This document shows positions 20,155 through 25,982 of a stretch of 64,000 bases of DNA, piece after piece. Position 1 is the stretch's first letter; the number at the start of each line of letters is the position of its first letter. Source of the DNA: Dictyostelium discoideum (Eukaryota); the NCBI GenBank assembly GCA_000004695.1, contig CM000151.3, positions 6,752,001-6,816,000 of the forward strand, read 5' to 3'. Below the pieces are notes generated by a model. It was given only the letters and a program-made list of their open reading frames with translations, was not told where the DNA came from and did no database searches. Both the position numbers and the translations under genes were made by a program.

Positions 20155-23100
20155 TTAAATAAAAGCAAAACCATCTACATATTCTAACATTTTAATTAAT
20201 TTCTTTTTAGTAGTATCAAAATCATTATAATCAGGTAAATCCAATTGATAACTACAAGTATGAGCACAAGGTAATTTTTGACTTAATGGTACTTGAATGA
20301 TTGAAATTGATTTTTCAAAACCAGATAGTGGTAATGCAACCATTCCAGTGACGAATCTTAGGAATAAACGAATTTCATCTTGATTCATTTCATCAACTGC
20401 TCTACGAAAATCTTTTGGAGTTGAAGAAGTGTCAGGGAAACCAATGAATTTGAAATTCTTTTGTAAAACACTTGAATCCACCAAAGTATTACCACACATT
20501 AATAATTGTAATTCAGTTGGAGAGAAAAGTGCAAAATGGGCATTTAAACTATCGATTGACATGAAACCAGATTTAAATGCTTCCAATTTCGATTGTCTAC
20601 AACCTACTAAAACTCTTTCAATATTTCTTTGAATGAATTCCTCTTTATTTAAATCTGTAACTGGTATTGATTCACCACCTTCAATTAAACCTTCAAATGT
20701 TGTTGATAAATATTCTTCAATATTATCCAATACTAAAACCTTTTTAAATGATTGTGCTAATTGTGGATCATAAATTTCTAAATCTCTTAAATTTACTTTA
20801 ACTCCTAATAAATATTTAAAAAATGATGTTGGAAAACAATCTGGTATTGGTTTACCATCAATAATTGATTTTAAAAATATTTTACCTAAAATTTTAAAAA
20901 TTGTAAATTCATTTTTTAAAATTAATAATGGATTTTCTTCATTATTATTATTATTATTATTATTATTATTATTATTATTATTATTATTATTATTATTATT
21001 ATTATTATTATTATTATTATTATTATTATTATTATTATTTTCTTCATTATTATTGTTATTATTATTAAATAAATCATTTGAATTTAATAAATAAAATGGT
21101 GATTCTGTTCCACTATTTTCAAACAAATTGAATTTTTTTGAAAATAAACTATTTTTTGGAATTGAATAAGAAACACTATTATTTGAATTATTTGAATTAT
21201 CAATAATTTGATTATCACTAAATAATAATGAATACATTTCAGATGATAAACCACCTAAATCTAAACCTTTTTCACCTTGAAAAGAAACTTCTAATCTGCA
21301 AAATAATTTATTTGATTCAATTTTTTTAAAAAAGAATTGAAAGAAATCTAGTACTAAATGTTCACGACGTACAGTTAATTGAAGTGATTCACTCATTTCT
21401 TCTGCCATCTCTGATAATGATGATATATGAGCTCTAAATGCAGCAATCTTTTCTCTACAATCAATTAATGTTCTTGATGATAATAAATCCTCTACCAATG
21501 AAGTTACAAAGTATGGATGAACTGCAATTTGATGAGCAGTTGGTCTAAGTTTTGGATTTCTTTGAAATATTGATGATAATAATGATATTAATCTTTGATC
21601 TGAATGATTTGCTGGTAATGGTAAATTATTTTCTTCTGGTAATAAAAATGGTTCTCTTATTATTAAAAAATTATTATTATTATTATTATCATTTTCATTA
21701 CCATCACTATTATTATTTTTACCATTATTACCATTATTATTATTATTAACAAATTGAAAAATACATTTATATAACATAACACCAAATGCCCAAATATCAG
21801 TTGAATAACTACCCTTAACATTTTGTTCTTTCATTTCAGGTGCTTTATATAATTCAGTACCACCATTAATATTGAAAACTGTAACATTAACATTTGCAGA
21901 GATATCTTTACTTAAATCAAAATCAGAGATTACTGGTGTACCATCTTGTCTAATTAAAACATTTTCCAATTTTAAATCTCTATGAATAATACAATTTGAA
22001 TGCATATAAGCAATAGCTTGAATGATTTGTTGAAATATTTTTTGAATTTCCCAAGGTTGTCGTCTTTTATTATTTTCATTATCATTATTATTATTTCTAC
22101 ACCAATCTAATAGATTACCACCAGAAATATACTCCATTTGCATAAATGCATTTCTATCATAGAATACAGCTTGAATTGGCATAATACATTTATGATTCAT
22201 TTGTTTCAATAATGATACTTGTCTCTCGAAAATTTGTTTACCAAATGCATCACCAATTCCAAATTCTTTCAATACAACTAATTGATCATTAAAATTTGCC
22301 AAATAAACATTATGTGGATGTGTTGATAAAGTTTTAATAATATCATAATGTTGAAATTTTCTATCGGTTACTAATAATCCTGTATCTTTAATTCTTGATG
22401 AAATTTTATCATTTGCTCTTAATTTAATTTTAAATTCTGGTACATATTTATCTAATATTTCAATAATTAATTCATTTATTTCTTGTTGATTACTTAATAA
22501 TTTCTGTTCATCTTTTTTTAATTTAATTAATTCATTTTTTAATTTTTCAATATTATTATTATTATTATTATTATTACTACTATCATTTATACTATTACTA
22601 TTTATATTATTATCTATATTATTATTATTATTATTATTATTATTATTATTATTATTATTATTATTATTATTATTATTATTATTATTACTATTATTATTTA
22701 CACTATTATTTTCATGATTATTATCATCATCATCACATAAATTTTGATCATAATCTAATTCTATAACTTCAATTTTTTTACTTAATTCAATACTATTTCT
22801 TTTACAAAATCTATAATCAGATTTTAATTTCTCTCTTTGTTCTAATAAAGATTGAGCCAATTTTGATTTATTTAAAAAATCTTGAACCTCTACTAATTTA
22901 CCACGATGAATATTAATTAAATCATCACACTGTTGTAATTGTTGTGAAAGTAATGAATGATATTTAATTGCATATTTTTGAGTTTCTAATACAATTAATT
23001 GAATTTCTTCCATTGATAATCTTAATGATTCTCCAAAATTTTTATTAATAATTCCACTACTATTTGTTGTATTTGCTGTTGTCGTTGTTGCTGTTGCTGT

Positions 23101-25982
23101 TGCTGTTGTTGATGATGCAGTTGCTGTTGTTAAAGGTTGGACCATTGTAGTAGAATCCATAATATTATTACAAAAATTACCTAATCCTTGATTTAATCTT
23201 TCAACTAAATAAAAACTTTGTTGTTGAATTTCAATTGCTGTTAATGTTCCATTCTTTATTTCGCTATCTTCTTCTTCTTCATCTTGTTCCTCTTCTAATT
23301 CTGTTTCTGATTTCTCTCGTTGTTGTTGTTTTTCATCCTGATGAACTAAAACTTTTTTATTTATTAAATTTGTTGTTGTTGTTGTTGTTGTTGTTGTTGT
23401 TGCTGTGGTTGTAGTTGTTGTATTTGAAGTTGTAGTTGTAGTTATAGTTGATAAATTTAATAATTTTGATAAATTTAAAAAAGTTAAATCTTTTTGTTGT
23501 TTAATTTCTAACCAATAATCAATTGAAGTTTGATATTCTGATACTAATCCTAAACCAAGTTGATTTCTTGATAAAACCAATCTATCGATTTCAGATTGAA
23601 TATTATCAGGTAATGGTGAAAGTGATAAATTTGAATTTACCAATAATTTCAATTGTCTATTTATATCATCGAAATCTTTATTCTTCTTTTCAATTGAAAG
23701 TCCTAAATTTGGTAAACTACTAGTTGCTTTCATTTGAATTAAATTTAATAATCCTTTTGATTTTGAAATTAATGTCATCCATTCAATAAAATTACTTTGT
23801 GTACTATTTAATAAATCTTTACCTTCATTTGCTAATGATAAAAATGATGGTGTTGGTGATGATGGTCTTGTTATTATTGTTGTTGTTGTTGATTTTATAT
23901 TATTATTTGTTTGTTTTATTATTGTCGTTGTTGAACTATTATCAATTATTGATTTATTAAAATTACTATCACTACTACTATTAACACTTGATGGTAATGA
24001 TAATTCTGTTTGTTGTTGTGATTGAGTTGATGATGGTAATTGTAATTCTGTTTTAATAATTGGTTCTTTAAATCTTTTTTCAACAATTATTGTAATAATT
24101 TCACCACACGTAAATAATAATGGTTTTGAATCTTTTGAATTTATAAAACATTTCTTTGGTGTTAATTGATTTTCATCACTTTTAAAACCTAATCTTTGAC
24201 CAGCATTACATCCCCAAGAATATAATGAGCCATCAATAGACATTGCTACATTATGTTGAAAACCACTCGAAACATCTATAAACTTTACATTATCAACAAC
24301 AACGCTATTGCTATTAATTAATACTGGTAAATTCCTATCACCTTGAACATCAATCGATGTACCAAGTACACCATAATCACTTCTACCCCATGCATATGTA
24401 TCATTATTATCTGATATTGCAATTGAATGATAACCACCTGCTGAAACTTTAATAATATTAATTGGTTGTTGTTGTTGTTGTTGAGATGTTTGAAACCATT
24501 GAATTTGTTTTGGTATAGTTTGTTGATTTGAAAAGCAACCAATACCTAATTGACCTTGATCATTTCTACCAAATGAAAAAACTAAACCTTTATTTGTTAA
24601 TACCAATGAATGACCACCACCACTTGACATATCAATAATGAAATGACCTTGTAATGATTGAACTAATTTTGGTGTTGATTGCATTAACAATGATTGTTCA
24701 CCTAATCCTAATCTACCATGATCACCTCTACCAAATGTAAATAATAAACCTTTATCTGTAATCACTGCCGATCTATTCGTACCGCATGATAATTTAACAA
24801 TTTTAATTTTATTATTATTACTACTACTATTTTGAGATAATGAAAATTGTTGTTGTGCACCGTCATTATTATTATTATTATTATTATTAGTACTATTGTT
24901 ATTGTTGTTATTATTATTATTATTATAACTAATATTAAAATTAATTAATTGTGGTAGTGAATAATATGATGATGATGAACCATTACCTAAACCTAATTGA
25001 CAACTATCATTACCACCCCAACTATAAACTTTACCACAAATTGTTAATGCTAATGAATGTTTACCACCATTTGCAATGGATACAACTCTTAATGATGGTT
25101 TTGTTTGAAAGAATTCAACCAATTTAGGTGAACTATATGATTCAAGATTACCATGACCTAATTTACCCAATAAACCATCTCCAAATGTATAAAGATTACC
25201 TTGATCCGTTATGAATGAACTATGAATTGCTCCCGTTGATATCAATACAATCTTTTGTTGATTATACATCTCTGAAAATCCTATACTACTCATATTACAA
25301 TTTTTATAATTTCTAATACCATTACCCCATATTGTTATATAATCTATTATCAAAATAATAATTAATAATTAATTAATAATTAATAATAATAATAATAATA
25401 ATAATAATAATAATAATAATAATAATAATAATAATAATAATAATAATAATAATAATAATAATAATAATAATAATAATAATAATAATAATAATAATAATAA
25501 TACATACGATCGCTTTCTAATTCATCTTTATCTTCATGACCAAGTTTCGGAATTAATGAAGTATCGAAATTAGTTTCATCCTCTTCTTCCTCAATCTTTT
25601 TTTTATTTATTATAGTATTATTATCGTCATTATTAATTTCTTCATTATTTTTATATATTGATGCACTTTCTCTTATACTTTTAAAATTATTTTCTTTTGT
25701 ATTATTATTATTATTATTATTATTATTATTGTTATTGTTATTATTATTATTAAAGTTATAATTATCGGTATTATCATAAACATATTTATATGTATAATTT
25801 TTATAATCATTATATGGGAAATTGGTTGTTGATGGAGTTTTTGTTAAGGTTGGTGTTGAATTATTACCTCCATTATTACTGTTATTGCCTCCATTATTAC
25901 TGTTATTGAATAAATTAACTTGTGGCGTATGATTTAATGTTTCTTCAATCTTACTCTTTATTGACTTGAAGAATAATGACAT
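20155..25982 (-). CDS. Large multidomain protein: N-terminal RCC1-like repeats, central divergent protein-kinase domain, C-terminal HECT ubiquitin-ligase domain. Probable 2 exons
   Basis: The main exon is 20155..25343, of which the track ORF 20155..25353 is part. Its first codon reads TTG, not ATG. A probable exon 1 at 25508..25982 has a true ATG (MSLFFKSIKSK…) and a GTATGT donor after …LESD. The intron is about 165 nt, contains (AAT)40 and ends …AATAG, giving the junction …ESD-H-YITIWGNG. Six or more RCC1 blades (GNLYTFGDGLLGKLGHG…, GKVYSWGGNDSCQLGLG…, GLLFTFGRGDHGRLGLG…, GLVFSFGRNDQGQLGIG…, YAWGRSDYGVLG…, LYSWGCNAGQRLG). Kinase motifs: VLK (beta3 Lys), HRDLKLEN, DFD (in place of DFG), YKAPE. 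There is no Gly-rich loop. HECT C-lobe motif …LPCAHTCSYQLDLPDY… ending GFAFI. Confidence 0.8.
25381..25500. repeat. (AAT)40 microsatellite inside the putative first intron of the RCC1-kinase-HECT gene
   Basis: Read directly in the sequence. It is one of many AAT/ATT arrays in the window, for example 20084..20134, 48979..49055, 51487..51550 and 62871..62950. Confidence 0.95.

Follow-up and report, generated by a model that had tools for sequence, protein, structure and literature searches.

The minus-strand gene at positions 20155..25982 of the 64,000-nucleotide stretch of Dictyostelium discoideum DNA analysed here (hereafter the window) consists of two exons and encodes one protein of 1887 residues, in which an RCC1 domain, a protein kinase domain and a HECT ubiquitin ligase domain follow one another. 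The protein is the one catalogued as DDB0219986 in the kinome of this organism. Its C-terminal 750 residues form a module of kinase, linker of fixed length and HECT domain, for which a single origin with many kinase–HECT ligases of protists is argued here; among the latter is TKUL/HECT12 of Leishmania mexicana (LmxM.34.4000; kinase PDB 9GMP). Confidence is high for the structure of the gene and the architecture of its domains, as well as for their conservation and the assignment to this family. The explanation that best accounts for the data as a whole, and that is considered moderately probable, is that the DDB0219986 gene carries a TKUL-type module and specifies a HECT ligase controlled by its kinase.

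The window has a G+C content of 24 %, and an open reading frame (ORF) of 1732 codons extends without interruption over positions 20155..25353 of its minus strand. The presence of a 5.2 kb open frame in DNA of this composition rules out a chance ORF, and that candidate was rejected on the grounds of length and G+C content. The ORF was originally predicted to lack an ATG at its 5′ end, and the ORF listing of the window bears this out, as no plausible eukaryotic start codon is found there. A bacterial-type TTG start was considered and rejected; a start at the internal Met21 was rejected also, since the conserved N-terminus of exon 1 argues against it. A second minus-strand ORF, of 200 codons (25380..25982), is situated approximately 160 nt upstream of the first, and its ATG start comes right after an in-frame TAA. 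Joining of position 25508 to position 25343 yields the following gene model.

Exon 1: 25508..25982, minus strand; begins with the ATG at 25982 and holds 158 codons and 1 nt; its N-terminus is of low complexity and has the conserved start MSLFFKSIKSKIEETL.
Intron: 25344..25507, minus strand; 164 nt, GTATGT...AATAG; consists largely of (ATT)n, as read on the coding strand.
Exon 2: 20155..25343, minus strand; runs through the TAA stop codon at 20155–20157.

The splice donor (C/GTATGT at 25507) and acceptor (AATAG/ at 25344) define a phase-1 junction, at which c and at combine to a His codon; the frame is kept, and the resulting peptide, ELESD-H-YITIWGN, is that of the curated protein. The spliced sequence of 5664 nt comprises 1887 codons and a stop. 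The splicing of an upstream exon, 25508..25982, to position 25343 had been predicted from the DNA alone and proved exact, in that splice sites, phase and curated protein all agree. The same prediction placed a 120 bp (AAT)40 tract in the intron. An AAT tract is indeed present there, but its size was only roughly right: Tandem Repeats Finder reports (AAT)n on the plus strand at 25354..25502, with 48 copies and a 95 % match. Alignment with other dictyostelids revealed that the N-terminal motif MSFFKSIK..KIEET is kept in D. purpureum, Tieghemostelium lacteum and Acytostelium subglobosum, and that the strand YI(I/T)IWGN, which spans the splice junction, is conserved in other dictyostelids as well.

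The identity of the protein was established by comparison with the D. discoideum sequence in Table S2 of the kinome paper (Goldberg et al. 2006, PMC1420674). The spliced translation and DDB0219986 have the same N-terminus, MSLFFKSIKSKIEETL, and the same junction peptide, ELESDHYITIWGN, and the identity runs from that N-terminus through ELESDHYITIWGNGIRN, splice junction included. The kinase domain is numbered from residue 1158 (Y1158, in YDIIKTL) in both the kinome alignment figure and the present gene model, which argues that no further introns lie between the N-terminus and the kinase. Structurally, nothing differs between the two proteins.

It is apparent that the literature has contained this gene since 2006, together with its exon structure and its odd kinase motifs. 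A check of the kinome list for a HECT-containing kinase, as proposed with the original prediction, retrieved DDB0219986 with the motifs described here on record (VAIK as VVLK, HRD as HRDLKLEN and DFG as DFD; PMC1420674), so the protein had not previously gone unnoticed. It is entered there in group CAMK, family CAMKL, subfamily CAMKL-Unique, and the legend of the domain figure lists HECT and RCC1; the paper groups DDB0219986 with Lkb1 on a long branch and leaves the link to a ligase undiscussed (PMC1420674). A review of ubiquitination in Dictyostelium counts five HECT ligases, of which only HfnA and HectPH1 are characterized (PMC5666861). A literature search on DDB0219986 and this gene returned no functional study. 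Its UniProt name may be of the type ‘bifunctional serine/threonine-protein kinase/NEDD4-like E3 ubiquitin-protein ligase (hectPK1)’, although no argument made here draws on that name.

The placement of RCC1 repeats, kinase and HECT domain in a single polypeptide is supported by Pfam profile searches, which had been suggested as a check and which matched all three. With the 1732-residue ORF as the query, RCC1 was matched in six stretches (E 8.1e-61), RLD (WD40_RLD) with an E value of 2.2e-68, Pkinase over ORF residues 1025–1282 with 5.6e-41 and HECT with 1.5e-54. The Pkinase match begins at profile position 26, and the region of the glycine-rich loop is therefore unmatched. The domains and motifs are listed below; residue numbers, here and throughout, are those of the full-length 1887-residue protein unless marked as ORF residues.

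Residues 1–159, minus strand: low-complexity N-terminus, encoded by exon 1.
24079..25341, minus strand, residues 160–580: RCC1-like domain (Pfam), containing a poly-Asn/Gln insert; the blade motifs, of the form xWG(x)nLG, number seven.
22354..24078, minus strand, residues 581–1155: low-complexity/helical region, with poly-Thr, poly-Asn and acidic tracts and then a conserved helical stretch.
21499..22353, minus strand, residues 1156–1440: protein kinase domain (Pfam Pkinase), with a poly-Asn insert in the C-lobe.
22306–22335, minus strand: loop KTLSTHPHNV, in place of GxGxxG.
22267–22269, minus strand: K1184, the β3 Lys (VVLK).
22219–22221, minus strand: Q1200, at the αC-Glu position.
21961–21984, minus strand: HRDLKLEN, residues 1279–1286.
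21916–21924, minus strand: DFD, residues 1299–1301.
21835–21843, minus strand: APE, residues 1326–1328.
21304..21498, minus strand, residues 1441–1505: kinase–HECT linker of 65 residues, helical.
20158..21303, minus strand, residues 1506–1887: HECT domain (Pfam), with two low-complexity (poly-Asn) inserts.
20254–20256, minus strand: C1855, the HECT catalytic Cys, in AHTCSYQLDLPDY.
20158–20172, minus strand: C-terminal GFAFI, with Phe at −4.

All of the kinase features first read from the DNA (HRDLKLEN, the β3 Lys, APE, DFD and the missing glycine-rich loop) were thus located at verified coordinates, and the domain, though without that loop, is complete. The alignment also contains a DIWAFG motif and an Arg, which are assigned by us to subdomains IX and XI. 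A pattern search matched four of the RCC1 blades, and visual inspection of the dictyostelid alignment supplied the remaining three; the first propeller strand (YITIWGNG) begins right at the splice junction. In the region between propeller and kinase, the last 225 or so residues are conserved among dictyostelids, and a profile of residues 926–1150 weakly matches the segment that immediately precedes the kinase in members from Leishmania, Phytomonas and Pharyngomonas (E values of approximately 1e-3 to 1e-4, in a set of 293 sequences). The start of the HECT N-lobe, LEVSFQGEKGLDLGGL, is present, as are the catalytic Cys and the −4 Phe, and the HECT domain is therefore complete despite its two poly-Asn inserts. 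Long in-frame AAT/ATT tracts encode poly-Asn at 21670–21748 (kinase C-lobe), 20941–21067 (HECT N-lobe) and 22551–22724 (before the kinase). None of the orthologues from other dictyostelids has these poly-Asn inserts, which are peculiar to D. discoideum.

The RCC1, Pkinase and HECT architecture was found by Pfam in four more proteins, from D. purpureum (61 % identical), T. lacteum and A. subglobosum, together with one further sequence that groups with them. Identity to D. discoideum in the dictyostelid alignment is 65–79 % for the kinase, 67–80 % for the linker, 59–74 % for HECT and 43–62 % for RCC1, the kinase being the best-conserved of the domains. The loop KTL[AS]THPH[NS]V, the Gln at the αC-Glu position and DFD are invariant in the five dictyostelids, and the equivalents of K72, D166, N171 and D184 are likewise present and invariant. 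As judged from this alignment, the atypical kinase site is under purifying selection and not in decay. In the D. purpureum model DICPUDRAFT_153832 the conserved strand that opens the propeller (YI.IWGNG) is missing, a sign that an intron may have been mis-called.

With the 748-residue kinase–linker–HECT part as the query, 1.84 billion cluster representatives were searched exhaustively by HMMER. A kinase followed by HECT, in the same order, was present in 68 of the best 150 representatives. Named members are from Leishmania major, L. donovani, L. infantum and L. mexicana, Phytomonas, Papus, Naegleria gruberi, Pharyngomonas kirbyi, Anaeramoeba ignava, Anaeramoeba flamelloides and the amoebozoans Soliformovum irregulare and Echinamoeba exundans; the Leishmania proteins are annotated as ‘MAP kinase kinase-like protein’ or ‘ubiquitin-protein ligase / HECT12’. 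No kinase–HECT match from Ectocarpus was recovered by name in this search. The N-terminal domains vary: Leishmania and a metagenomic protein related to it have TPR, Naegleria and Soliformovum have ankyrin repeats, Anaeramoeba has LRR together with filamin, and for some members no N-terminal domain was detected. An RCC1 domain like that of D. discoideum was not detectable by phmmer among the best-150 kinase–HECT matches. The N-terminal domain, on this evidence, probably does not define the wider family. The Naegleria match, XP_002669909 (ankyrin–kinase–HECT; cf. PMC3673628), differs from the protein described here in having ankyrin instead of RCC1 and a more divergent HECT domain (Pfam, 38 bits).

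The fusion of kinase and HECT domain could in principle have arisen more than once, and three results argue for a single origin. A BLASTP comparison of the module with L. donovani HECT12 gave one collinear alignment, which begins shortly before the kinase and extends to the final residue (query 4–748, subject 715–1425, E 2e-71). The stretch from the HPYF motif of the kinase to the start of HECT, ‘V.F.GE.G.D.GGL’, aligns without gaps in 46 non-dictyostelid members and has positions in common among them, such that the linker with its flanking domain boundaries is a segment of fixed length across the family. The best solved relative of the kinase domain, moreover, is 9GMP (E 2.6e-26), which represents residues 725–1004 of Leishmania TKUL/HECT12, followed by AMPK (1.8e-19); the rest of the top ten in the PDB were largely AMPK, CHK2 and MARK but included a JAK-type tyrosine kinase and NEK1. 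In the course of these comparisons it was observed that PDB 8ye5_A, of 129 residues and labelled ‘TmrC’ (source Dehalobacter), matches residues 121–247 of the Leishmania HECT12 TPR region with 270 bits and shares a 90 % cluster with it; the label is odd for a near-identical sequence.

An AlphaFold2 model of the kinase–HECT module, computed with 51 family sequences, had a predicted local distance difference test (pLDDT) score of 85 and a predicted template modelling (TM) score of 0.70. The pLDDT of the kinase domain was mostly above 90; the segments of low confidence were chiefly the poly-Asn inserts, the beginning of the linker, a portion of the activation segment and the five residues at the C-terminal end. 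When the five dictyostelid sequences alone were supplied, the pLDDT was 33. The HECT part of the model superposes on solved HECT domains with a target-normalised TM score of up to 0.83 (Foldseek against the PDB); that search returned HECT structures only, and no solved kinase–HECT chain.

It was of interest to determine how widely the unusual residues of the kinase are shared. Residues were counted over 51 kinase–HECT family sequences, five of them from dictyostelids. The β3 Lys is present in 50, the His of HxD in all 51, the catalytic Asp in 47, the Asn in 48 and the Asp of DFG in 46; the HECT Cys is found in 49 and the −4 Phe in 44. Glycine occurs in at most nine of the sequences at every position of the glycine-rich loop, and the residue that follows DF is Asp in 23, Gly in 20 and Glu in five. 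These counts identify the missing glycine-rich loop and DFD as traits of the family and not as decay particular to this gene. At the αC position, Glu is found in 42 of the sequences and Gln in seven, five of which are the dictyostelids; only this replacement of Glu by Gln would appear to be (nearly) specific to dictyostelids.

The Dictyostelium protein and TKUL have the same order of kinase, linker (approximately 75 residues) and HECT, collinear to the C-terminus. The β3 Lys, the Asp and Asn of the catalytic site, the Cys of HECT and the Phe at −4 are found in both. The ATP loop is without glycine in each (TLSTHPHNVY in Dictyostelium, TLSSTVNSKVY in TKUL). The Dictyostelium protein thus conforms to the TKUL type in having a kinase directly N-terminal to a C-terminal HECT domain and joined to it by a segment of fixed length, in the glycine-poor loop with retention of the β3 Lys, the HxD Asp, the Asn and the DFG Asp, and in the HECT Cys and −4 Phe (C1855, GFAFI). 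Several observations do, however, weigh against its interpretation as a TKUL-type kinase-controlled ligase. Overall sequence identity to TKUL is 26 %. The N-terminus carries an RCC1 propeller, whereas that of TKUL carries TPR. TKUL has the αC Glu, HGD and DFG where the Dictyostelium protein has Gln, HRD and DFD, and of these differences the first and the last count against the interpretation, the Gln and DFD being shared by the dictyostelids. Finally, DDB0219986 was rated ‘partial kd’ in the kinome, with the note ‘lacks G52 and E91’ and the predicted activity ‘aq’ (PMC1420674); the latter code, for which the text of that paper gives no definition, is read here as active/questionable.

The original prediction described the protein as HERC-like, and in architecture this is correct. 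The RLD and the C-terminal HECT domain that characterize HERC proteins are both present, and in animal HERCs, too, an RCC1-like propeller precedes a HECT domain at the C-terminus. They differ in that a kinase lies between propeller and HECT here, and in that the HECT domain described here is nearer to those of TOM1, E6AP, the NEDD4 type or the kinase–HECT proteins. Relatedness was judged in this regard by comparing scores and not by phylogeny: HECT scores were approximately 70 bits for HERC3 and 13.5 for HERC2, as against 123 for TOM1, 115 for E6AP, 111 for WWP2 and up to 190 for kinase–HECT proteins, so that by this measure the HECT domain is not closest to HERC-type HECT. Its PDB sequence matches were TOM1, E6AP, WWP2, HUWE1 and NEDD4. 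Orthology to animal HERCs was considered and rejected, on the basis of the lower HECT scores against HERC3 and HERC2 than against TOM1 and E6AP. The RLD is described as having been gained repeatedly and independently as a partner of HECT (PMC3673628). As far as sequence comparison can tell, the HERC-like label describes architecture only, and the part of it that would imply ancestry does not stand.

The mechanism proposed for the Dictyostelium protein is drawn from TKUL. Autophosphorylation of TKUL is reported to be required for its ligase activity (bioRxiv 10.64898/2026.05.08.723729), and a kinase inhibitor is reported to inhibit the TKUL ligase allosterically (PMC13196369, which cites Fokkens et al., Mol Cell 2025, pmid 40997810). 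By analogy, the HECT domain would be a competent ubiquitin ligase; the kinase would bind ATP via its unusual glycine-poor loop and autophosphorylate; and the state of the kinase would be relayed through the rigid linker, by which HECT would be switched on or off. The RCC1 propeller may serve as a lineage-specific input, for substrate binding or localization. That the kinase is active and switches the ligase in Dictyostelium is rated at about an even chance.

The kinase domain is related to CAMKL, as indicated by the Pfam Pkinase match, the PDB matches and the kinome class CAMKL-Unique, yet the canonical GxGxxG, αC Glu and DFG are replaced by STHPHN, Gln1200 and DFD. These three departures, together with the kinome rating just mentioned, are what would be expected of a pseudokinase that has lost phosphotransfer and serves HECT as a scaffold or nucleotide-sensing regulatory module. 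Tribbles pseudokinases serve the COP1 ligase in a comparable scaffold role. This alternative survives better than the others but is rather unlikely. The equivalents of K72, D166, N171 and D184, invariant in the five dictyostelids, are conserved in at least 90 % of the family, and no other domain of the protein is conserved as well as the kinase. Inactivity is predicted in the kinome paper from loss of K72, D166 or D184 (PMC1420674); as K1184, D1281 and D1299 are present, the kinase is not predicted to be inactive by this three-residue rule. The Leishmania homologue, moreover, has an equally glycine-less loop and is reported to autophosphorylate, which makes an active regulatory kinase more likely than a dead pseudokinase. 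An altered nucleotide-binding loop had led the original prediction to suggest a regulatory pseudokinase. The regulatory role remains reasonable; the loss of catalysis is less likely, in view of the retained catalytic residues, the family-wide nature of the loop and DFD, and the autophosphorylation reported for TKUL.

Alternatively, the kinase might act on substrates recruited by the RCC1 propeller, which HECT would then ubiquitinate, so that the protein would be a built-in writer and reader of phosphodegrons. This reading corresponds to the coupling of phosphorylation and ubiquitin transfer that the original prediction envisaged. Both catalytic centres look intact, and the combination of kinase and E3 ligase in one chain has precedents. 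MEKK1, with a kinase and a PHD/RING-like domain, is an example, and the plant KEG and U-box (PUB) kinases likewise combine a kinase and a ubiquitin ligase in one chain. MEKK1, KEG and the U-box kinases differ from the protein described here, however, in that they employ RING/U-box chemistry and not the HECT thioester, belong to unrelated kinase families and have no shared linker. The linker of invariant length and the mechanism reported for TKUL favour intramolecular regulation, and phosphorylation of recruited substrates is considered improbable as the principal function, although it is compatible with self-regulation.

It is very improbable indeed that RCC1, kinase and HECT belong to separate genes or transcripts, or that kinase and HECT were fused independently in Dictyostelia: a second D. 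discoideum assembly does annotate just a 588-residue product beginning inside the kinase domain, but 1732 codons are uninterrupted in DNA of 24 % G+C, four other dictyostelids share the architecture, the curated model is identical and Leishmania HECT12 aligns collinearly across the linker. The shorter product, KAM9966213.1, is 98 % identical, and the gene was probably split or truncated there by automatic annotation.

Other features were noted in the window, of which the tRNA genes are as follows.

14972–15045, plus strand: tRNA-Phe-GAA.
19543–19613, minus strand: tRNA-Pro-UGG.
19686–19759, minus strand: tRNA-Phe-GAA, approximately 400 bp downstream of the stop codon of the ligase gene.

Between the tRNA genes is a stretch richer in G+C (0.40–0.44), which contains an ORF of 417 residues (15313–16566, plus strand) and a near-identical partial copy of it in the opposite orientation (17215–17994 and 18783–19247, both minus strand), with an assembly gap of 100 N at 16699–16798 between the two. 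Neither the ORF nor its partial copy had a Pfam match; they are presumably copies of a retroelement targeted to tRNA genes. An 82-residue ‘ORF’ at 19343–19591 (minus strand) consists of four copies of FFQFLFSIPFFNS, overlaps the tRNA-Pro call and is probably repeat DNA and not a gene. Farther away, a PH–ArfGAP–ankyrin protein is encoded at 12308–13975 on the plus strand (ArfGap E 1.2e-38), and the plus-strand ORF at 11722–12318 may be an earlier exon of that gene. Upstream of the ligase gene and on the opposite strand, an ORF with WD40 repeats occupies 27306–28280 (plus strand, WD40 E 5.8e-29); the two would be divergently transcribed across an AT-rich spacer of 1.3 kb with long A and T runs.

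As the gene is catalogued and the mechanism of the family is published, what is added here is the placement of the protein in the TKUL type and the wide distribution of the module among protists. Neither was found stated in the literature searched, though the primary TKUL paper may cover both. Tentatively, the readings may be joined as follows. The kinase–linker–HECT module would be an ancient signalling unit of eukaryotes, to which different lineages attach different inputs. It occurs in Amoebozoa, Discoba and Anaeramoeba, and published work places it in stramenopiles too; the opisthokont and plant models from which HECT biology is known apparently do not have it, although no test of this absence was made here. 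Dictyostelia would use an RCC1 propeller and have, in addition, replaced the αC Glu, and their switch may be set by a signal other than that of the Leishmania type, e.g. the binding of a small GTPase or lipid to the propeller.

The absent glycine-rich loop and DFD, being traits of the family, are not to be taken here as evidence that the kinase is dead. Loss of hect12 in an L. mexicana null mutant lowers fitness in promastigotes and in axenic amastigotes (PMC7647121). The link to TKUL, which is associated with virulence and sensitive to a kinase inhibitor, provides the Dictyostelium gene with a concrete mechanism, proposed by homology, and D. discoideum offers a genetically easy and non-pathogenic organism in which to study the kinase–HECT switch. 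If the interpretation presented here is true, D. discoideum would constitute a tractable, free-living model for a drug-targetable virulence mechanism of Leishmania.

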